Origin: Candidatus Parcubacteria bacterium | GTDB lineage: Bacteria; Patescibacteriota; Minisyncoccia; Phycocordibacterales; UBA918 | Direction: 5' to 3' | Assembly (NCBI GenBank): GCA_046050355.1 | Contig: JBJOPW010000002.1 | Location: 43,853-107,852 of the forward strand | DNA: 64,000 nt | In this document: positions 5,634-45,722 of the stretch, piece by piece | How positions within the stretch are numbered: the stretch's first letter is position 1 | How the letters are laid out: every line of letters starts with the position of its first letter | Translations under genes and position numbers: made by a program | Notes under the pieces: model-generated | The model's database searches: none | What the model saw: the letters and a program-made list of their open reading frames with translations, nothing else | What the model was told of the DNA's origin: nothing

Positions 5634-5705
5634 TGCCCCGGCTTGGAATCGAACCAAGAATAACGGCTTAGAAGTCCGCAGTTATATCCATTTAACTACC
5701 GGGAC
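5634..5705 (-). tRNA. tRNA-Arg (anticodon TCT).
   Basis: Reverse complement folds as a cloverleaf. Acceptor GTCCCGG/CCGGGGC, D-stem GTTA/TAAC with GG in the loop, anticodon loop CTTCTAA, T-arm CTTGG-TTCGATT-CCAAG. No CCA encoded. Confidence 0.8.
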
Positions 5706-10273: not shown

Positions 10274-10349
10274 TGGTGGGCGATGAGGGACTCGAACCCC
10301 CGACCTCGATGGTGTAAACATCTTGCTCTACCAACTGAGCTAATCGCCC
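10274..10349 (-). tRNA. tRNA-Val (anticodon TAC), CCA encoded.
   Basis: Reverse complement GGGCGAT-TA-GCTC..GAGC-A-AGATG-TTTACAC-CATCG-AGGTC-GGGGG-TTCGAGT-CCCTC-ATCGCCC-A-CCA. A hairpin TGGGGGTGTCCCCA lies immediately 3'. Confidence 0.85.
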
Positions 10350-15151: not shown

Positions 15152-15236
15152 TGCCCAGGTGGCGAAATTGGTAGACGCACTACCTTGAGGTGGTAGCGCC
15201 TTCACGGGCATGCTGGTTCAAATCCAGTCTTGGGCA
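15152..15236 (+). tRNA. tRNA-Leu (anticodon GAG), long variable arm.
   Basis: GCCCAGG acceptor, GG in the D-loop, anticodon arm CTACC-TTGAGGT-GGTAG, variable arm CGCCTTCACGGGCAT, T-arm CTGG-TTCAAAT-CCAG. No CCA encoded. Confidence 0.85.
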
Positions 15237-19222: not shown

Positions 19223-19298
19223 TGGGGCGGCTACCGGGAATTGAACCCGAATTGAGAGTTCCACAAACTCCAGTAATAACCATTATACCATAGCCGCC
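19223..19298 (-). tRNA. tRNA-His (anticodon GTG) with encoded G-1 and CCA.
   Basis: Reverse complement GGCGGCTA...anticodon arm GGAGT-TTGTGGA-ACTCT, T-arm TCGGG-TTCAATT-CCCGG, 3' end TAGCCGCC-C-CCA. The extra 5' G pairing with C73 is His-specific. Confidence 0.85.
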
Positions 19299-27851: not shown

Positions 27852-27859
27852 CAAGAAAC

Positions 27860-28265
27860 GCGGATGGTTGCGAATTCGAGTTGTGTAATTACCATCTCGA
27901 GTTTGAGGAAAGTCCGGACACAGCGTCAATAGAAATATTGTCGAGACAGGTAGTGGGTAATACCCATCCTGAGCAATCAGCGAGGTGCGAGCAGAGACGC
28001 CCGCGGCGAAAGCCAACGGCTACCCACCAGGGTAGAGCTTGTATGGCAACATACAAGGTGAAACGGCTAAATCCTTACCCCTGTGCAAGGCCGTGCCGAG
28101 CACGTAGTCTGGATACATAATCTCTATGATTACATTTCAGACTACGTGCTTGGAGAGCTGCAAGAGGTGATCAGTAATGATCATCCCAGGTATATAACCA
28201 TCTCGAGCCAATGGCTCGAACAGAATCCGGCTTACAGCGTATCAAACACTCCCTTAGGGGAGTTT
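27860..28265 (+). ncRNA. rnpB: RNase P RNA (bacterial type).
   Basis: P4 5' strand GAGGAAAGTCCGGAC at 27905-27919 and P4 3' strand ACAGAATCCGGCTTA at 28220-28234 match the universally conserved RNase P RNA motifs. Ends with terminator hairpin CTCCCTTAGGGGAG plus T5 at 28247-28268. All six-frame ORFs inside are judged spurious. Confidence 0.8.
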
Positions 28266-37196: not shown

Positions 37197-38876
37197 ATGG
37201 AAGTTGTTATCCGTGCCGCCATCACTGATGTACTCAAGGAACTTGGTCTCCCCGAGGTGGCATTTACCATTGAGCACCCAAAGATGCTTGATCATGGCGA
37301 CTACGCGTGTAACGTGGCGATGGTTTTGGGTAAGCAGGTGGGCCAATCACCGCGCGCTGTGGCGGAGCAAATCCTCGCGAAGCTTCAGGGTCAGATTGAA
37401 TACGTCGAGCGTATCGAGATTGCTGGTCTGGGTTTTTTGAACTTCTACCTCAGTCGCGATTTCTTTTCCGCTGAAGCGGCCCGAGTACTCGAAGAGGGAG
37501 CCGGTTGGGGTGAACATGACACCGAGGTAGACGAGGTAGTGCTGTTTGAGTACACCAGTCCAAACCTGTTTAAGCCACTCCATATTGGTAACCTGGTAGG
37601 GAATATTATTGGCGAATCATTTACCCGACTATTTGAAATGGCCGGGGCTGATGTGCGTCGCCTGAACTATCCGTCTGATATTGGTCTCACGGTGGCGAAG
37701 GGAGTCTGGGGTCTTAAGACTACTGGCAGTGACCCAAGCGATATCACAGCCCTGGGGAATGCCTATCGAGTTGGGAATGATGCGTACGAGAATGACGAGA
37801 CTGCCAAAGCCGAAATCGAAAGCATCAACCGTGCCCTCTATGCCCGCACGGACGAATCCCTCAATGCGCTGCGCGATGCCGGTATCGCGACTTCGCGCCG
37901 CAGTCTCACCGCGCTGTGCGAACTTCTTGGAACACATTTTGATACCGAGATAACGGAAAGCCAAGCGAGTGCTCCTGGTACAGAAATAGTGAAAGCCAAT
38001 ATCGGCACAGTCTTTACTGAGAGCGAGGGCGCGGTAGTGTATCAGGGAGAGAAAGCGGGTCTCCATACCCGTGTCTTTCTCAACTCACAAGGTCTCCCGA
38101 CGTATGAAGCGAAGGATGTTGGACACTTTACCCTCAAGCAGCAGGCCCACCCTGACTGGACGGAGTCTATCATTGTGACCGGCAACGAACAGACCGAATA
38201 TTTCAAAGTCCTCTATGCGGCACTGCGCGAACTGTTTCCCGAGATTGCCGACAAAAATCTCGAACATATCCCAACCGGCTTTTTGACCCTCACGACGGGC
38301 AAGATGTCTTCACGTAAGGGTAATGTCCTCACCGGCGAATCGCTCTTTGCCGAAGTGGCTGAGGCGGCACGCGAACGAGCGCAGGAGAGTCGAGCCGATG
38401 ATATCGAGAAGCTTGCGAATCAAATTGCGGTAGCGGCCATCAAATACCAGATACTAAAATACAGTGTTGGTTCAAATATCGTCTTTGATAAAGAAAAGGC
38501 CCTTTCATTTGAAGGAGACTCCGGTCCGTACCTACAGTATACGTACGCGCGCTGTCTCTCAGTGCTCGAAAAAGCGCGCGGGGTAGAGATCGAGCCACAG
38601 CTCGCACCGGCACCCGAGACACCATACGTCCTTGAACGTATCTTGTACCGGTTCCCGGAGGTGACCGAAGCGGCGCTCCGTGACCGTGCTCCACATACTG
38701 TCGTCACCTATCTCACTGAACTAGCTGGCGAGTTCAACTCGTTTTATGCGCATGAGATAATAGCGGACGCCAGCGATACCTACGCTCCGTACAAGGCGTT
38801 GCTGACGTCCGCTGTCGCAACGACACTGAAGAATGGTCTTTGGGTCCTCGGTATCGAAGCGCCTGAACGACTCTAG
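37197..38876 (+). CDS. argS: Arginyl-tRNA synthetase.
   Basis: N-terminal ArgRS add-1 domain, HIGN (class I HIGH variant) and KMSSRKGN (KMSKS) motifs. TATAGT box just upstream. Confidence 0.9.
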   Translation: MEVVIRAAITDVLKELGLPEVAFTIEHPKMLDHGDYACNVAMVLGKQVGQSPRAVAEQILAKLQGQIEYVERIEIAGLGFLNFYLSRDFFSAEAARVLEEGAGWGEHDTEVDEVVLFEYTSPNLFKPLHIGNLVGNIIGESFTRLFEMAGADVRRLNYPSDIGLTVAKGVWGLKTTGSDPSDITALGNAYRVGNDAYENDETAKAEIESINRALYARTDESLNALRDAGIATSRRSLTALCELLGTHFDTEITESQASAPGTEIVKANIGTVFTESEGAVVYQGEKAGLHTRVFLNSQGLPTYEAKDVGHFTLKQQAHPDWTESIIVTGNEQTEYFKVLYAALRELFPEIADKNLEHIPTGFLTLTTGKMSSRKGNVLTGESLFAEVAEAARERAQESRADDIEKLANQIAVAAIKYQILKYSVGSNIVFDKEKALSFEGDSGPYLQYTYARCLSVLEKARGVEIEPQLAPAPETPYVLERILYRFPEVTEAALRDRAPHTVVTYLTELAGEFNSFYAHEIIADASDTYAPYKALLTSAVATTLKNGLWVLGIEAPERL

Positions 38877-39455
38877 GTTTGCAAAAATAAATAATACTGA
38901 TAGGCTCATGGCAGTCAGTTAAAACAGCGGGGTAGGCATGGGCTGGTGGCAAGAATTGTTCGGGTTTGAGTTCTGGGCCTATCTCGGGTGGCAGTTTTAC
39001 CTCGAGACGCTCATGTGGCAAATCCCAGAGGATGATCCACCCGATGGTGGTATCCCAAACGGGGTCGCGTACGCGGCCCCGTTTTAGCGCTTGACGGTAA
39101 AGATGGCAGGTGTACGATTATGACTTACCGCTTTGCAAGGAGGCAAAAGGCGGTAGTTGCGAAGGGAGGGTAAGACTTTGATTACTACAAGCTTGGTTAT
39201 TGCGGGGCTTATAAGTGTCATCGTGCTGCTGTTGGCTGCGTTTTGGCCAAGAAAAACAAATATGGCAGAAAGCCATATCGAGCAAGGAACTGGGCGGGGT
39301 TAACACCCTGCTCTTTGCTTTATGTGGCCGCTCGCCAAAAGAGAGAATCGTGGTACTATGCCAAGTACCGGCCTGATATGTCGGTGAGTTTAGTTTCGGG
39401 GTTGGACCCCTAAATCATACTCATTACTAATGTCTGATATACATTTTATATTTTT

Positions 39456-42400
39456 ATGTCAAAAATGCATGGTCGTGAAAACGACACCGTAGCGGTTGAA
39501 ACTGCTACACAAAAGAGTGACGTTGCCCTGCGCGAAGAGACTATCCTTGCGTTCTGGCAAGAGCACGATATTTTTAATAAAACCCTAGCGACACCGGCGG
39601 GGGACGCACCAATTGGTGACTATATCTTTTATGATGGTCCACCGTTTGCGACCGGGACACCACACTACGGCCATATCTTAGCAAGTACCATCAAGGACGC
39701 CGTCCCACGCTTTTGGACGATGCGTGGCTACCATGTTCCCCGCAAGTGGGGGTGGGACTGTCATGGGTTGCCGCTCGAGAACCTTATCGAAAAGAAGCTC
39801 GGACTTGCGACCAAGCGTGACATCGAAGACTATGGGGTCAAGAACTTCAATGAAGCCGCACGCGGTACCGTCATGGAGTACGCTGACTACTGGAAGATGG
39901 CCATTCCGCGTATGGGACGCTGGGCTGACATGGAGAACGACTACAAAACCATGGACAGTACCTACACCGAAAGTGTGTGGTGGGTATTCTCTGAACTGTA
40001 CAAAAAAGGTCTTGCGTTTGAGGGTTTCAAGACCATGCATCTCTGTCCACGCTGTGGCACGACCCTGTCTAACTTCGAAGTGAATCAGGGGTACAAAGAT
40101 ATCAAAGACATCGCCGTGACGGTGAAGCTACCACTGCTCGATGACGCCGGGCAGGTGACTGACACCGCACTCCTCGTGTGGACGACGACACCATGGACCC
40201 TCCCAGGGAACTTGGCTGCCGCTATCAATCGCGAGTTTGATTATGTGAAAGTGAAGGTTCTTCCCAAGGTTGATATAGGGCAGCTAAACGGTGAGTATGT
40301 TTCAAAGTCTGAAGAATATGTTGTTTTAGCAAAAGGAATACTAGAAAAATGCTATGCAGAAAAAATGTCCATTCAGACTTTCTATGCTTTTGGCGATCAT
40401 TGGCTTGTGCCAGTTGAAACATTTTCTGGCGACACTCTTATCGGACGCTCGTACCAACCACCATTTCCGTTTATGGCAGGACAGAGTTTTGACCAGACTA
40501 ACGCCTGGAAGATTTGGCATGCCGACTACGTCGAACTCGGTGAGGAGGGAACCGGCGCCGTCCATATCGCGCCTGCCTACGGTGAAGACGACATGCAGCT
40601 CGCTAAGGCCAATAATGTCCCAATTGTCCACCATGTCGATGAGAGTGGTCGGTTCAAAGACTGGGTGACCGGCTTTAACTGCGCCTTAGTAAAGCCAAAA
40701 GATGACGATACGTCTGGCGTTGATCACAAAGATACTGATATTGAAATCTTGAAGTTCCTCCAGGCCGCTGGCAAGATTTTCAAAAAGGAGAATATCACAC
40801 ACAGTTACCCACACTGTTGGCGCTGCGATACACCGCTCCTCAACTACGCGACTACCTCATGGTTCGTAAATGTACCAAAGATCAAAGACGAACTCGTCGC
40901 CGTGAACAACGGTGTCCACTGGGTCCCAGAACATGTTGGTACAAATCGTTTTGGTAAGTGGCTCGAGGGGGCGCGTGACTGGGCTATCTCTCGCCAGCGT
41001 TACTGGGGTGCGCCACTGCCAATTTGGAAGAATCCAACCACTGGTGAAGTGAAAGTGATAGGCTCGCTTAAAGACCTACAAACGTATGTGCGAAAGAGTG
41101 GTAACACCTATACCATCACCCGCCATGCTGAGGCGGAGAGTAATCTCTCTGGGGTTATTGATGCGATTAAGGATGAAGCCAATCATTTGACTGAAACTGG
41201 CAAAGCGCAAGCTAAAGCGACCGCCGAAACATTACGTGTCAAAGGAATCACCCGGATTGTGCATTCGGGTATGACCCGAGCTCGTGAGACAGCGGAATTA
41301 ATTGCCAATGAACTAGGGCTGTCTCAGGCTGTGGTCGTTGCCGATGAACGGTTGCAGGAATTTAAAGTAGGGACTGCTTGGGAGGGTAAGACTTGGGCTG
41401 AGTTTAACTCTCAGTTCGCAACCGAAGAAGAAAAATTTGAGAAGACTTTTGCCGGTGGCGAGAGTCGCTTTGATTTGATCAAACGAGTAGGACAGTGGCT
41501 TTATGAATATGACGCCTCGAACCAAAACGAGCACACACTTGTGATTGGGCACGGTAGCTCACTTTTTGCACTACAAACAGTAGCCCGAGGAGCTGATTAT
41601 GATGAGATGATTACCCTCAAAAAAACTGGGTATCTCAAAAATGCCGAGGTGCGAGATCTGCCCTTTATCCCTATACCCCACAATGACCTCTACCAGCTCG
41701 ACTACCATCGACCATACATCGATGAGATTGAGCTCTACGACACCGATGGTGCGAAGCTTGAGCGCATCAAGGATGTCTTTGATTGTTGGTTCGAGTCGGG
41801 TTCGATGCCATATGCCCAGCATCACTACCTGGGTGAGAACCCAGAGGAGTTTGCCCCGAAGTGTTTCCCAGCCCAGTTTATTGCCGAAGGACTCGATCAG
41901 ACTCGCGGCTGGTTCTACTCACTCATTGTACTCGGTACTGCACTCTTCGGCCGTTCGCCGTATGAGCATGTGATTGTAAATGGTCTCGCCTTGGCTGAAG
42001 ACGGCAAGAAGATGTCAAAGAGTCTCCGCAACTATCCTGATCCGATGGAGCTTGTTGACCGAGTGGGGGCAGACGCTATTCGTTACTACATGATGTCTGC
42101 GCCAATCATTCGGGGTGAAGACCTGAACTTCAGTGAAAAGGAAGTAACTGAACAACAGCGCAAAAATATCGGTCGTTTGCACAATGTACTCGCCATGTAC
42201 GACATGTATGCCGATGGTACTACTGCAAATGCCGCCTCTGCCAACACACTCGATCGTTGGATTGTCTCACGCCTCAATCAGCTGATAGCTGAAGTAACTG
42301 TAGGGTACGAGAGCTACGAGCTCGATAAGGCCACTCGACCAATCGCCGATTTCATTGATGATGTTTCTGTCTGGTATCTACGCCGTTCTCGCGAACGATT

Positions 42401-43061
42401 GAAGAGTGATGATGTGGCAGATAAAGCACTGGCTCTCGGCACCCTCCGCTATATCTTGCGAGAGCTTGCAAAGGTAATGGCACCTGCCATGCCGTTCTAT
42501 GCTGAGTACCTCTACCGTGCAGTCCGAGAGGAGAGTGAGGCAGAAAGTGTCCACCTCACCAAGTGGCCAGAATGTGCAATTGTGGACGAAAGTAGTATTG
42601 ATCTTATGAAGCAAGTACGTGAAGTCGTGACTGCCGCACTTGAAGCGCGCATTAAGTCTGGTATCAAAGTGCGTCAGCCGATTGCCAGTGTCACTGGTCC
42701 AGAGTTGCCAGCCGAGTATCAATCAATTGTGCTTGATGAGCTCAATGCCAAAGCGTATCAAGTAGGGGAAATCATCTCAATTGACACTACCCTCACCCCT
42801 GAACTCATCGCCGAAGGAGCGGTCCGTGAAGTGATGCGCGCCATCCAAGATATGAGAAAGCAGACCGACCTCACCCCTAATGATATTGTCAGTCTCATTA
42901 TTGAGACCGATGCGGCCGGGCAAACGGCGCTTGAAACCCCAGCACTCAAAGCCCTCCTCATGAAGACGGTTAATGCCAAGAGTATTACCTACGCTAGTAC
43001 ATCAGGAACTGAAGTCATTGCTGGCGAGTATCGCTTTGTGGTGAATGTAGTGAATGAGTAG
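39456..43061 (+). CDS. ileS: Isoleucyl-tRNA synthetase with an inserted ~200-aa histidine-phosphatase (PGAM-like) domain.
   Basis: PHYGHILAS (HIGH), WTTTPWTLPGN (editing CP1), HCWRCDTP, WAISRQRYWGAPLP, DCWFESGS, KMSKS. Between the last two core blocks there is a segment with RHAEAE...GHGSS, which are histidine-phosphatase motifs. Confidence 0.9.
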   Translation: MSKMHGRENDTVAVETATQKSDVALREETILAFWQEHDIFNKTLATPAGDAPIGDYIFYDGPPFATGTPHYGHILASTIKDAVPRFWTMRGYHVPRKWGWDCHGLPLENLIEKKLGLATKRDIEDYGVKNFNEAARGTVMEYADYWKMAIPRMGRWADMENDYKTMDSTYTESVWWVFSELYKKGLAFEGFKTMHLCPRCGTTLSNFEVNQGYKDIKDIAVTVKLPLLDDAGQVTDTALLVWTTTPWTLPGNLAAAINREFDYVKVKVLPKVDIGQLNGEYVSKSEEYVVLAKGILEKCYAEKMSIQTFYAFGDHWLVPVETFSGDTLIGRSYQPPFPFMAGQSFDQTNAWKIWHADYVELGEEGTGAVHIAPAYGEDDMQLAKANNVPIVHHVDESGRFKDWVTGFNCALVKPKDDDTSGVDHKDTDIEILKFLQAAGKIFKKENITHSYPHCWRCDTPLLNYATTSWFVNVPKIKDELVAVNNGVHWVPEHVGTNRFGKWLEGARDWAISRQRYWGAPLPIWKNPTTGEVKVIGSLKDLQTYVRKSGNTYTITRHAEAESNLSGVIDAIKDEANHLTETGKAQAKATAETLRVKGITRIVHSGMTRARETAELIANELGLSQAVVVADERLQEFKVGTAWEGKTWAEFNSQFATEEEKFEKTFAGGESRFDLIKRVGQWLYEYDASNQNEHTLVIGHGSSLFALQTVARGADYDEMITLKKTGYLKNAEVRDLPFIPIPHNDLYQLDYHRPYIDEIELYDTDGAKLERIKDVFDCWFESGSMPYAQHHYLGENPEEFAPKCFPAQFIAEGLDQTRGWFYSLIVLGTALFGRSPYEHVIVNGLALAEDGKKMSKSLRNYPDPMELVDRVGADAIRYYMMSAPIIRGEDLNFSEKEVTEQQRKNIGRLHNVLAMYDMYADGTTANAASANTLDRWIVSRLNQLIAEVTVGYESYELDKATRPIADFIDDVSVWYLRRSRERLKSDDVADKALALGTLRYILRELAKVMAPAMPFYAEYLYRAVREESEAESVHLTKWPECAIVDESSIDLMKQVREVVTAALEARIKSGIKVRQPIASVTGPELPAEYQSIVLDELNAKAYQVGEIISIDTTLTPELIAEGAVREVMRAIQDMRKQTDLTPNDIVSLIIETDAAGQTALETPALKALLMKTVNAKSITYASTSGTEVIAGEYRFVVNVVNE

Positions 43062-43173: not shown

Positions 43174-43761
43174 ATGATGTCGTACCAGACTTACATTACG
43201 GACGCGGTGGTGGTCGGGAGCTATCACTCCAATACCGCGGACAAATCGTACCTCCTGTTTACCGAGCGCGCCGGCATGCTCTACGCGACTGCTCGCAGTG
43301 TCCGCGAAGAGCGAAGCAAACAGCGCTATGCCTTGCAGGACTTTTCGCATATCACCGTGACCTTGGTCAAAGGCAAAGCGGGCTGGCGCATTGGTAGTGT
43401 TGAATCATACCAAAACTTCTATGCCGATGCGGTCTCACGGTTGGCACGGGGGAGTGTTGTCCGCCTGACAAAAACCCTCCGTCGCTATGTCCAAGGTGAG
43501 GTACCAGACGAAAATCTATACCGTACCTATACCGAAGCACTGGCACTCCTCTCGACTGAGTGTGAAGCGCGTACTGCCTACGAACGCTGTGCTGAAGTCC
43601 GTCTCTTGTCCCATCTTGGGTATGTCGCGAGTGATGCGGTAGTAGCACCACTATTTGAGACATCACTTCATGAACTATCGCCGGCGCTGGTCGGGGAACA
43701 CGAAGCAATATTGGAATTACTCTACCGTGGCGCACAGGCAGTGAGTCATTTGGAACGATAG
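43174..43761 (+). CDS. recO: DNA repair protein RecO (short form).
   Basis: N-terminal OB-fold-like region (ITDAVVVGSYHSNTADKSYLLFTERAGMLYATARSVR) and overall length and charge pattern similar to RecO. Moderate similarity only. Confidence 0.55.
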   Translation: MMSYQTYITDAVVVGSYHSNTADKSYLLFTERAGMLYATARSVREERSKQRYALQDFSHITVTLVKGKAGWRIGSVESYQNFYADAVSRLARGSVVRLTKTLRRYVQGEVPDENLYRTYTEALALLSTECEARTAYERCAEVRLLSHLGYVASDAVVAPLFETSLHELSPALVGEHEAILELLYRGAQAVSHLER

Positions 43762-43775
43762 GGGGTGATATACTG

Positions 43776-45722
43776 ATGCATATGTCAGGTATTAAAGATC
43801 AAGCAGAGCTTGATGAGATTCGCAAACGTCTCTATGAACGTGGTGGTCAGCCACGGGCAGCGAGCCGTGTTCACTTGGCTACCGATGAGCAAACGCCGGT
43901 GGCTCGAGAATGGCAGGCTCCTGCTGTCCCGCCCAAAGCACCAACCGAAATGCTTCAACCTCGTGCTGAAGCTAAGCCGTTTGTAGTAAAACGGAAGACG
44001 TATCGATCAATTATTATTTTAGCAACACTGGCCATATTTCTATTGGTGTTAGGGGTGACCGGCCTCTATATGTTCCTCGGTAATAATCAGATTTCAAACG
44101 AGAATATCAACGTCACGATTTCTGGTCCGATTACCGTTGGAGGAGGGGAAACACTACCACTTGAAATTACATTAGAAAATAAAAATACCGTTTCTATTGA
44201 AGGTGCTGTCTTGATAGTAAATTTACCCCCCGGTACAAAAACAGCCGGAGAGAACCCGCAAGATATGCTAGAGGAACGTATATCAGTAGGTTCTGTTGGT
44301 GCTGGTGAGGTAATTACTCTGCCACTTAATGCGGTGATATTCGGTGAAGAGAATCAAGAACGACAAGTCAAAGCGACCATTGAGTATCGCCTCATTGGAT
44401 CAAACGGGACCTTTTATAAAGAGTCAGAGCCGTTCAATTTCAAAATTAACTCTTCGCCGGTTGTGATTAGAGTTAATACGTTAAAAAAAGTCTCCGCGGG
44501 ACAAGAAATTGAAGTCGAATTGCAGGTACAATCAAACGCATCAGCGCCTCTTAAGGATATTTTGGTACAAGCTGATTATCCAAACAACTTTGACTTTAGT
44601 CGCTCCGAGCCAAATCCAATGTATCGTGAGAGTGCCTGGCTGCTTGATGAAATCAAGCCAGAAGAAACAAAAAAGATCAAAATATATGGAGTGATTGTTG
44701 GTCAGCAGGCTGAGGAGTTCCAGCTTAAGTTTAGCGCTGGAACCCCAAAGCCTGAAAATCAATTTGAAGTAGGATCTATCCTCACTGTTGCCAATGCCGA
44801 TTTTATCATTGAGCAACCTTTTATTAATGTGGGCTTAAGTGTTAATGATACCGAGAGTGAAATTGTGACTACCAAAATCGGTTCGCAGACAAATGTAGCG
44901 GTGACTGTCCGTAACACACTCACCGATACGCTCTATGATATGGCCGTTGAGGTAAAGGTGGCTGGTAATGTACTCATACGTGACCGGGTCAATGTACAGC
45001 GTGGTTATTATGATTCGGTAAAGGATGTTATTCGTTTTGATCCATCTGGTGATAGCGACCTTTCAGAGGTTTCGCCTGGTGAGAGTAAAACGTTCACGTT
45101 CACCCTTAATCCTGGTGACCAAGTGAACACTCCATCCTTTAATCTAACAGCCAATGCGTACGCAAGACGTGTGTCTGAATCGCAAGCAACTGAACAATTA
45201 GTTGGTACCGCCAAAACAGAGGTGAAATTCACTTCAGCAGTCCGCATTAATCGTGAGTTGGGGCGTAATAATAGTTTTGTTGAGAGTGGGCCGTTCCCGC
45301 CGGTAGCTGACCAAGCGACCACCTATACCGTTACTCTCATTGCGGGAGCTGGAGGTAATGATGTGACCGGCGCCACGGTGGCGACAGCGCTCCCACAATA
45401 TGTGTCGTGGCAAAATCAATCTGCCGGCGATGGCACGGTGTCATTTAATCCGGTCTCCAAAGAGATTGTTTGGTCGATTGGCGACATTGAAGCTGGTAAA
45501 GACAAACAAATAAAGTTTCAAGTGAGTATTTTGCCAAGCCAGACACAGATTGGTAGTGCGCCGGCCATTCTCGCCGCTAGCCGCTTTAGAGCGACAGATC
45601 GATTTACTGGCGATGTGGTACGAGCTGATGCTGCGCCACTTTCAACCGAACTCTCCACCGAAGCCGGCTTTGAAAAAGATAATGGTGTGATTAGACGGAG
45701 TGTTGGGGCTTCGCTTGAGTAA
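43776..45722 (+). CDS. Large single-TM surface protein with repeated beta-rich domains.
   Basis: One TM near aa 85-110, then about 530 aa of Thr/Val/Asn-rich repeats with a CARDB/DUF11-like pattern. Confidence 0.5.
   Translation: MHMSGIKDQAELDEIRKRLYERGGQPRAASRVHLATDEQTPVAREWQAPAVPPKAPTEMLQPRAEAKPFVVKRKTYRSIIILATLAIFLLVLGVTGLYMFLGNNQISNENINVTISGPITVGGGETLPLEITLENKNTVSIEGAVLIVNLPPGTKTAGENPQDMLEERISVGSVGAGEVITLPLNAVIFGEENQERQVKATIEYRLIGSNGTFYKESEPFNFKINSSPVVIRVNTLKKVSAGQEIEVELQVQSNASAPLKDILVQADYPNNFDFSRSEPNPMYRESAWLLDEIKPEETKKIKIYGVIVGQQAEEFQLKFSAGTPKPENQFEVGSILTVANADFIIEQPFINVGLSVNDTESEIVTTKIGSQTNVAVTVRNTLTDTLYDMAVEVKVAGNVLIRDRVNVQRGYYDSVKDVIRFDPSGDSDLSEVSPGESKTFTFTLNPGDQVNTPSFNLTANAYARRVSESQATEQLVGTAKTEVKFTSAVRINRELGRNNSFVESGPFPPVADQATTYTVTLIAGAGGNDVTGATVATALPQYVSWQNQSAGDGTVSFNPVSKEIVWSIGDIEAGKDKQIKFQVSILPSQTQIGSAPAILAASRFRATDRFTGDVVRADAAPLSTELSTEAGFEKDNGVIRRSVGASLE

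Follow-up and report, generated by a model that had tools for sequence, protein, structure and literature searches.

A predicted histidine phosphatase domain nested in the type 2 isoleucyl-tRNA synthetase of Patescibacteria

A 64-kb stretch of the genome of a Candidatus Parcubacteria bacterium (contig JBJOPW010000002.1; the whole stretch of 64,000 nucleotides is referred to here as the window) contains ileS, the gene for isoleucyl-tRNA synthetase (IleRS), as an uninterrupted open reading frame of 1201 residues at 39456..43061 on the + strand, the strand that also carries the domains, motifs and neighboring protein-coding genes of the window located below. Comparison of the deduced protein with known synthetases and phosphatases indicates that this IleRS, which is of type 2 (eukaryote-like), holds an extra domain nested in its CP3 region, and that this domain is almost certainly a complete branch-1 (PGAM-like) histidine phosphatase. 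The explanation that we favor, and that seems on balance the probable one, is that the domain represents a fused version of a phosphatase for which sister Patescibacteria have a gene of its own, abutting the start of ileS, and that it is a phosphomonoesterase working with IleRS. An identical sequence has been deposited, annotated as a hypothetical protein, from the metagenome-assembled genome of a Candidatus Parcubacteria bacterium.

A search of the window IleRS against Pfam matched residues 554-721 to positions 3-169 of the 194-position His_Phos_1 profile (PF00300) with E = 4.4e-29 and a score of 102 bits, the gathering threshold being 21.7. When the insert was modeled in isolation with AlphaFold2, a pLDDT of 91.1 and a pTM of 0.88 were obtained. 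In a model of the full-length protein (residues 16-1201, built from a 69-sequence alignment, mean pLDDT 81.9), the insert was the most confident stretch, with pLDDT values of 86-96 per 10-residue block. Foldseek comparison of the insert with the PDB returned histidine-phosphatase-fold proteins only. The best matches were the Hydrogenobacter phosphoserine phosphatase iPSP1 (E = 4e-14, TM 0.76), Mycobacterium tuberculosis GpgP Rv2419c (TM 0.75, root mean square deviation 2.8), Schizosaccharomyces pombe PGM and PhoE; the Foldseek probability was 1.00 and TM was 0.74-0.76 for the comparisons with 4IJ5, 4QIH and 1H2E, and FBPase-2 was also among the structural matches. An earlier note on this DNA had proposed that the segment is an inserted PGAM-like histidine phosphatase domain, and the profile match, the models and the structural matches (TM ~0.75) all bear this out.

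Inspection of the insert reveals the motif ITRHAEAESN at residues 554-563 (nucleotides 41115-41144) and the motif VIGHGSSL at residues 696-703 (nucleotides 41541-41564). The first includes the RH(G/A) motif R556-H557 (41121..41126), of which H557 is the predicted phosphohistidine nucleophile, and the second includes H699 (41550..41552), the second active-site histidine. Between them lie R608 (41277..41279), the second phosphate-binding arginine, within an S-x-x-x-R-x-x-x-T-A motif, and E635 (41358..41360), the predicted general acid/base. Conservation was assessed in a close set, consisting of the 120 best database homologues of the window IleRS (from independent assemblies, 63-100% overall identity, 1117-1261 residues), and in a distant set, consisting of the best 150 of 317 representatives of 50%-identity clusters, in which insert identity falls to ~30% and counts are of aligned domains. 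PF00300 was present in all 120 close homologues, and R556, H557, N563, R608, E635 and H699 were invariant in all 120. In the distant set, R556-H557 was found in 141/141, R608 in 156/156 and H699 in 149/150 domains, and E635 was retained in 148/156, with Asp in five of the others; E669 (153/154) and R677 (151/154) were similarly conserved. H557 and H699 are the two histidines that the earlier note had named as catalytic.

In comparisons with close relatives, the nonsynonymous divergence (dN) of the insert was 0.12-0.18 and the synonymous divergence (dS) was saturated (proportion of synonymous differences, pS, 0.63-0.77), so that only dN << dS can be stated. The dN of the insert was 1.2-1.7 times that of the IleRS core, the pattern being otherwise core-like. 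As judged from these substitutions, the insert is under purifying selection, and the conservation of its catalytic residues suggests that it is very likely an active phosphomonoesterase that would operate by the standard phosphohistidine mechanism. The fold might instead be kept as a non-catalytic module, which would serve only as a structural spacer or would bind phosphate without turnover, for example that of the tRNA backbone or of its 5' end. CP-region insertions of class I synthetases often serve tRNA binding, and the domain tolerates several positions in the protein. However, binding alone needs no complete catalytic set, whereas here the whole set, nucleophile His and acid/base Glu included, is near-invariant at ~30% identity; a free-standing gene form also exists, and we regard a purely non-catalytic role as very improbable.

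Comparison of the insert with curated NCBIfam phosphatase models gave no score above the cut-off of a specific family. CobC was the best phosphatase match, but the alpha-ribazole phosphatase model (TIGR03162) scored 73.9 bits relative to a cut-off of 162.9, and the SixA phosphohistidine phosphatase model (TIGR00249) scored 27.5 relative to 74.5. Scores for PspA and GpmB were also far under the curated cut-offs. Assignment as a dPGM was rejected with scores of 59.9 bits versus 225 for dPGM_arch and 34.7 versus 316 for PRK01295, and TIGR01258 was not among the matches listed. The insert motif reads RHAEAESN, and E635 is followed by FKVG and not by the RHYG of dPGM. The small branch-1 phosphatases iPSP1 (4IJ5, Hydrogenobacter thermophilus), GpgP Rv2419c (4PZ9), PhoE (1H2E, Bacillus stearothermophilus) and CobC share the fold, a similar size and the same catalytic residues with the insert (TM ~0.75, sequence identity 23-26%), but they are free-standing metabolite enzymes, unlike the nested domain. 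A parallel in architecture is provided by the bifunctional RNase H/CobC-like acid phosphatase of the M. tuberculosis Rv2228c type (NF005567), in which a His_Phos domain is likewise fused to a nucleic-acid enzyme; this model was among the best NCBIfam matches for both the insert and the free-standing forms described below (56.7 bits versus a cut-off of 326), although in that protein the fusion is terminal rather than nested and the partner enzyme is different.

The boundaries of the insertion were obtained by phmmer comparison with all PDB sequences. Residues 24-542 and 749-1080 of the window IleRS aligned to human (9W01) and yeast (8WND) cytosolic IleRS, in which only ~8 chain residues separate the two aligned blocks. 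Because the blocks stop at residue 542 and resume at residue 749, the insertion was assigned to residues 543-748 (206 residues; 41082..41699), between IGSLKDLQ and DYHRPYID. This is essentially the segment at 41060-41680 to which the earlier note had drawn attention. The IleRS blocks WAISRQRYWGAPLP (residues 509-522; nucleotides 40980-41021) and DCWFESGS (residues 776-783; nucleotides 41781-41804), quoted there together with the two phosphatase motifs, were all found in place, and the two IleRS blocks are 253 residues apart, close to the ~245 first estimated. Measured from the start of SRQRxWGxPxP to the start of DxWFxSG, the distance is 264 residues in the window IleRS and 66-73 in most insert-less relatives.

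The CP3 region of yeast IleRS comprises residues 459-526, and the tRNA CCA-end pocket of that enzyme is bordered by its CP2-CP3 linker, ARDWNVSRNRYWG (PMC7955072). The insertion point maps between yeast residues ~490 and ~499 and therefore falls inside CP3. The CP3 of Candida IleRS forms a small subdomain of beta-beta-alpha-alpha topology, and the Thermus CP3 has a zinc knuckle (PMC7191050); the position taken by the 206-residue phosphatase domain in the window protein is occupied by ~8 residues in the eukaryotic enzymes and by the small zinc hairpin in Thermus. The alignment thus disposes of the alternative that the segment is a known IleRS insertion of the CP2 or zinc-binding kind: it is, in these comparisons, an extra domain nested in CP3 and no known CP2 or zinc element. 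An intein or other self-splicing element was also rejected on sequence grounds, as the phosphatase fold takes up the whole segment and the C-terminal "HN" is followed by Asp rather than by Cys, Ser or Thr.

The remainder of the protein has the features of a complete synthetase. The NCBIfam model TIGR00392 (ileS) matched the window protein with 833.9 bits (cut-off 621.4) in two stretches flanking the insert, and Pfam placed tRNA-synt_1 in two pieces with His_Phos_1 between the halves, followed by Anticodon_1 (PF08264, E = 3e-31) and, in the C-terminal region, DUF5915 (PF19302). The N-terminal part (residues 1-542; 39456..41081), which aligned to yeast/human IleRS residues 13-490, contains the first Rossmann half with HYGH, the class I HIGH motif (residues 70-73; nucleotides 39663-39674), the CP1 editing domain, CP2 and the first CP3 hairpin up to IGSLKDLQ. 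The C-terminal part (residues 749-1201; 41700..43058), delimited by Pfam and by alignment to yeast/human IleRS from residue 498/499, contains the remaining CP3 (DYHRPYID...), the second Rossmann half with DCWFESGS and with KMSKS (residues 852-856; nucleotides 42009-42023), the anticodon-binding domain and DUF5915. Among PDB sequences, the human, yeast and Thermus thermophilus enzymes were the best relatives (E ~1e-192), and Staphylococcus aureus IleRS (1FFY) gave an E-value of only 2e-86. By sequence, the window IleRS is therefore of type 2, nearer to the eukaryotic and Thermus enzymes than to the S. aureus/Escherichia coli type, with DUF5915 replacing the bacterial zinc-binding C terminus; the full set of IleRS domains and motifs is common to this protein and the type 2 enzymes of known structure (T. 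thermophilus 1ILE, yeast 7D5C/8WND, human 9W01). All of the IleRS motifs are left intact by the insertion, and the enzyme looks functional, its charging activity being a prediction. No second ileS and no second phosphatase were found within the 64-kb window, and among the window open reading frames examined no further class I synthetase gene besides argS was noticed.

The nested arrangement is widespread. When the insert by itself was used to search all of 1.84 billion cluster representatives, 317 clusters were retrieved at E<1e-10, and nearly all of the best 150 were IleRS or IleRS fragments with the phosphatase domain at the same place. The insert is, as far as these clusters show, a member of a separate His_Phos clade found only with IleRS. 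GTDB species representatives with the nested form (L001-L031) are labeled Paceibacteria, Parcubacteria, Kaiserbacteria, Nomurabacteria, Adlerbacteria or "Patescibacteria group", and in NCBI some of the 120 close homologues are named "class I tRNA ligase family protein" or "hypothetical protein." The same type of IleRS without an insert was found in one Patescibacteria genome (L033), in some Myxococcota and in one gammaproteobacterium. One locus (L011:4130-4747, protein P0018) has an insert that is only 41% identical to that of the window, with the catalytic residues intact, although the organism is otherwise near to the window organism (ArgRS 94%, IleRS N-terminal part 87%, IleRS C-terminal part 79% and RecO 90% identical). 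The P0018 insert was closest (50-56%) to inserts from more distant lineages, which looks like cassette replacement through recombination.

A profile built from diverse inserts also retrieved, with E ~1e-60, many phosphatase-only proteins of ~186-202 residues, the named examples being from Candidatus Staskawiczbacteria, Parcubacteria bacterium DG_74_3 and "Patescibacteria group." These free-standing forms scored 86-98 bits with the CobC model, below its cut-off of 162.9, and come from low-GC Patescibacteria (32-36% GC). The gene order argS-phosphatase-ileS was observed in all eight free-standing loci examined, the ileS product being insert-less and 940-997 residues long. In seven of the eight, the end of the phosphatase gene overlaps the beginning of ileS or is separated from it by 1-4 nucleotides; in the eighth (L077), a 197-residue open reading frame lies between them. 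The wider order, argS-phosphatase-ileS-(x)-recO-large secreted-type protein, matches that of the window, the phosphatase gene excepted.

Other relatives carry the domain elsewhere in IleRS. The 1419-residue protein P0241, which represents a six-member cluster found on contigs as long as 1.06 Mb, has an intact zinc-knuckle CP3 and two His_Phos domains, the first immediately following DCWFESGSMPYA and the other ~70 residues past KMSKS. Its relatives include proteins of Candidatus Gracilibacteria, Peregrinibacteria and Peribacteria. Four insertion sites could be distinguished: A1, before DxHRPxxD (the window type); A2, after DxHRPxxD; B, between DxWFESG and KMSKS; and C, past KMSKS. Among 119 relatives of P0241, His_Phos was at C only in 44, at A in 26, at B and C in seven, at B in five, at A, B and C in two, at A and C in two and at A and B in one; 13 had none, and the remaining 19 were without site assignment. 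Site A1 was used in 224 proteins of the analyzed sets and A2 in 22, the domain replacing the zinc hairpin in the latter. The phosphatase domains group by site and not by host protein: the nearest neighbor was of the same class for 61/62 C domains and 43/45 A domains of the Gracilibacteria set and for 116/116 free-standing domains, with a between-class identity of ~0.30, and in a neighbor-joining tree of IleRS cores the free-standing-type and nested-type enzymes were interleaved. On this evidence, there are at least five configurations in which the association of phosphatase and IleRS arose or persisted, namely the upstream gene and four insertion points. In addition, P0454 lacks His_Phos and carries two tandem HAD-IA phosphatase domains at site B instead.

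One pair of proteins bears on the timing of such events. P0500, with an A2 insert, and P0506, which is insert-less, share synteny and have flanks that are 74% and 67% identical, which makes the gain or loss, as read from these sequences, comparatively recent. The GC contents of the two loci (L073 and L074) are 0.55 and 0.42, and in P0500 His_Phos replaces the CP3 zinc hairpin (KCTCGGKMS). Tandem phosphatase copies within or beside IleRS were also seen, four in P0129 (after the IleRS N-terminal part) and two each in P0211 and P0264, all on short contigs of uncertain completeness.

His_Phos is not the only enzyme domain added to the IleRS loops of these relatives. GNAT, P-loop kinase (AAA_18/AAA_33/Zeta-toxin-like) and alpha/beta hydrolase domains were found, and DUF559 and an IS200-like Y1 transposase (Y1_Tnp) domain occur inside the CP1 region. 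Multi-domain enzymes of up to 1859 residues were recorded in the Gracilibacteria/Peregrinibacteria group (P0393, P0454, P0455, P0471, P0477, P0479, P0266, P0444 and P0406), and GNAT and His_Phos are present together in P0393, P0266 and P0477. An accessory enzyme domain inserted in IleRS is likewise the subject of the NCBIfam exception model NF040702 (IleRS, N-acetyltransferase domain-containing). The window IleRS differs in lacking GNAT and scored 312 bits against that model, for which the cut-off is 1999; no model naming an IleRS with a His_Phos domain was matched in the NCBIfam scan of the window protein.

This variety raises the question of whether the inserts detoxify on target, the phosphatase inactivating, or blocking the activation of, a phosphorylated IleRS inhibitor, and the GNAT and kinase domains of relatives modifying inhibitors in other ways. 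The acetylation of aminoacyl-nucleotide antibiotics by MccE or RimL follows a similar logic. Such a role would suit the co-occurrence of GNAT, kinase and phosphatase domains in Gracilibacteria/Peregrinibacteria IleRS and the existence of NF040702, and the cassette-like replacement and fast evolution of the insert are what might be expected of a conflict system. Nevertheless, the association is deep and broad in Patescibacteria and the catalytic core is strictly conserved, which resembles housekeeping more than an arms race, and we know of no IleRS inhibitor that bears a phosphomonoester. Detoxification is accordingly held to be quite improbable.

The same observations can be read in another way, in which an ordinary small-molecule phosphatase of the phosphoserine, sugar-phosphate or nucleotide type, required by these reduced genomes, has come to lodge in a permissive surface loop of a protein that is essential and steadily expressed, and has no mechanistic link to aminoacylation. 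The nearest structures are those of the metabolite phosphatases iPSP1, GpgP, PhoE and HFP, the same loops accept the unrelated GNAT, P-loop kinase, DUF559, IS200-like Y1_Tnp and alpha/beta hydrolase domains, and near relatives are wholly without the domain. The insert also evolves 1.2-1.7 times faster than the core, a divergent cassette has been swapped in at L011/P0018, and the charge density of the insert equals that of the core. By contrast, the partner is consistently IleRS in nearly all of the best 150 of the 317 clusters, and the free-standing gene stands between argS and ileS in eight of eight loci and abuts ileS in seven. At least four insertion points and a non-homologous HAD enzyme are, moreover, all in IleRS, and such repeated use would not be expected of a random site. 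The coupled gene, the four insertion points and the HAD replacement are hard to account for if a housekeeping enzyme was merely parked there by chance, and we judge this reading unlikely, though it is the most serious of the rival explanations. A function tied to IleRS is favored over accidental insertion because the distribution is lineage-wide and the fusions are repeated and independent; that the phosphatase is functionally coupled to IleRS is thus considered likely.

How the favored phosphomonoesterase would work with IleRS can be outlined. The domain would operate physically with the synthetase on a phosphorylated ligand of that enzyme. It may strip tRNA(Ile), or a different RNA end that IleRS presents, of a terminal phosphate and so make the tRNA chargeable again. 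It would in this way add a second hydrolytic site of a servicing kind, by the same logic as the CP1 editing domain, which is also hydrolytic, is nested in the Rossmann fold and services the tRNA 3' end in cis. CP1 differs in being universal in IleRS, ValRS and LeuRS, in having an unrelated fold and in hydrolyzing aminoacyl esters, whereas the phosphatase is lineage-specific and lies in CP3. An RNA-end substrate is favored because CP3 adjoins the CCA-end pocket and because the P-loop kinase that is sometimes co-inserted would give the kinase-plus-phosphatase composition of an end-healing system. The weak similarity of one kinase insert to Pnkp1 and to the Ser-tRNA(Sec) kinase, its best matches, points in the same direction. 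That the substrate is a tRNA end is nonetheless a guess, and one with a limited chance of being right.

The kinase-phosphatase pairing has precedents in PFK-2/FBPase-2 and Pnkp, with which some IleRS relatives share the combination of a phosphatase (His_Phos in the IleRS relatives) and a P-loop kinase. The window IleRS has no kinase domain by Pfam, unlike Pnkp, and kinases occur only in some distant relatives. The known Pnkp phosphatases are HAD or metallophosphoesterase enzymes and not His_Phos. The similarity of the relatives' kinase inserts to Pnkp or PSTK is weak and inconsistent: for the one insert, the matches to Pnkp1 (PDB, E = 1e-3) and PSTK (NCBIfam, 39.6 versus 290 bits) were both far under threshold. 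Surface charge was also considered. The free-standing phosphatase is more basic than its IleRS partner in four of five loci, a weak hint of an RNA substrate, but charge was not accepted as evidence of RNA binding in view of the low-GC effect and the core-like nested inserts, which leave only a weak residual signal.

Several observations weigh against the favored explanation or against its RNA-end version. The free-standing forms have an isoelectric point (pI) of ~10, but neighboring proteins are basic too, so that this is largely a low-GC proteome effect. The window insert is acidic (pI 5.6, net charge -6) and the nested inserts have a charge density equal to that of the IleRS core, so that the surface of the window insert is unlike one that binds RNA. 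The nearest solved relatives of the insert are small-molecule (metabolite) phosphatases, and no specific phosphatase family cut-off was reached by the insert in NCBIfam. A second example of a kinase insert showed no RNA-kinase similarity. The insertion points in IleRS are scattered, and an exact placement with respect to the active site seems unnecessary. P0506, at L074, has neither an insert nor a His_Phos gene within 13 kb and, together with L033, which also has no insert or nearby phosphatase gene, indicates that the phosphatase is not indispensable to IleRS. Finally, the same IleRS loops host GNAT, kinase, DUF559 and IS200-like domains, and the IleRS of these bacteria may simply be tolerant of insertion.

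A link to IleRS could also take the form of a cis-acting protein phosphatase that clears an inhibitory phosphate from IleRS itself, for example from a serine of the KMSKS loop, either as built-in immunity to kinase toxins or as one arm of a regulatory switch. Protein phosphatases are known in the His_Phos superfamily (SixA, PGAM5 and Sts-1), and class I synthetases are phosphorylated close to KMSKS by Hip kinases, those of the HipA type silencing GltX or TrpS. Sites B and C flank the KMSKS loop, A1 and A2 are in the neighboring CP3, and a P-loop kinase domain is present in the same protein in some relatives. Against this, the similarity to SixA is far under the cut-off, the closest structures are those of small-molecule enzymes, and the co-inserted kinases are of the P-loop small-molecule/RNA type and not Hip or Hanks-type protein kinases; to our knowledge, phosphorylation of IleRS has not been reported. 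Self-dephosphorylation is therefore regarded as improbable.

The genes around ileS are conserved. Upstream, argS (37197..38876), the counterparts of which in L062-L077 have ArgRS domains by Pfam, was recovered by tblastn in most related loci whose sequence extends that far. It is separated from ileS by a non-coding spacer of 580 nucleotides (38877..39455, + strand), which occupies the position of the free-standing phosphatase gene of sister lineages. The spacer has no open reading frame of ≥80 residues on the + strand, and a six-frame hmmsearch with the insert profile found no remnant of a phosphatase gene in it. Its last ~180 nucleotides (39278-39455) are 79-94% identical in L001-L005 and L011; terminator-like hairpins lie at 39292-39313 and 39366-39386, and a long hairpin at ~39260-39340. 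The conserved end of the spacer may, from its sequence, be an ileS leader or attenuator, a search against Rfam returning no family for it, just hairpin-like chance matches.

Downstream, a recO-like gene (43174..43761) was found by tblastn in synteny in most of L001-L029, with RecO_N/RecO_C assigned by Pfam on the counterparts in L062-L071. It is followed by a gene for a 648-residue protein (43776..45722), also syntenic by tblastn, the counterparts of which gave faint CLIPPER/DUF7619 matches. Counterparts of ~550-650 residues follow recO in nearly all of L001-L031 and L062-L077, and this large protein is acidic (pI ~5) even in low-GC genomes with otherwise basic proteins. Elsewhere in the window, a bacterial class A RNase P RNA was detected at 27852-28250 (109 bits, just over the gathering score of 100), together with five tRNA genes (441-512, 5634-5705, 10277-10349, 15153-15236 and 19226-19297). 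In an actinobacterial metagenome-assembled genome (L059:15-5694), the order mnmA-ligA-nadD-rsfS-His_Phos (CobC-like, 123 bits)-leuS was observed, so that a histidine phosphatase also adjoins another class Ia synthetase gene outside Patescibacteria. E. coli cobC and M. tuberculosis Rv2419c lie in similar nadD-rsfS clusters.

No paper describing an IleRS with a nested His_Phos domain was found in the full-text literature searched, and the AARS Online database paper is silent on it. The statement in the earlier note that no aminoacyl-tRNA synthetase with an embedded PGAM domain is known therefore stands for that literature but not for the databases, in which hundreds of unannotated proteins share the architecture. 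The combination of IleRS and His_Phos appears from that literature to be new, type 2 IleRS and branch-1 His_Phos each being known. Few enzymes have been studied as thoroughly as the aminoacyl-tRNA synthetases, whose accessory domains for editing, tRNA binding and signaling have each revealed new biology.

The association described here spans a large part of Patescibacteria, in the form of a coupled gene or of inserts at four points, with one mimic by a HAD enzyme, and this degree of convergence argues for a phosphate-removing step tied to isoleucine charging in these ultra-small, host-dependent bacteria. It is possible, if rather doubtful, that IleRS of the candidate phyla radiation has an unrecognized second service activity, in which a phosphatase, with or without a kinase or acetyltransferase, would act on tRNA(Ile) or on the synthetase, healing phosphorylated or cleaved tRNA ends or reversing inhibitory phosphorylation. 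On that reading, the need for such a service would be strong, since the phosphatase has been attached in at least five ways, once as a non-homologous HAD enzyme. The free-standing and fused pairs provide a ready experimental system. Identification of the substrate could uncover a new form of damage control or regulation of tRNA or of the synthetase, and would give a functional handle on a family whose members go by no more than "class I tRNA ligase family protein" and "hypothetical protein" at present.

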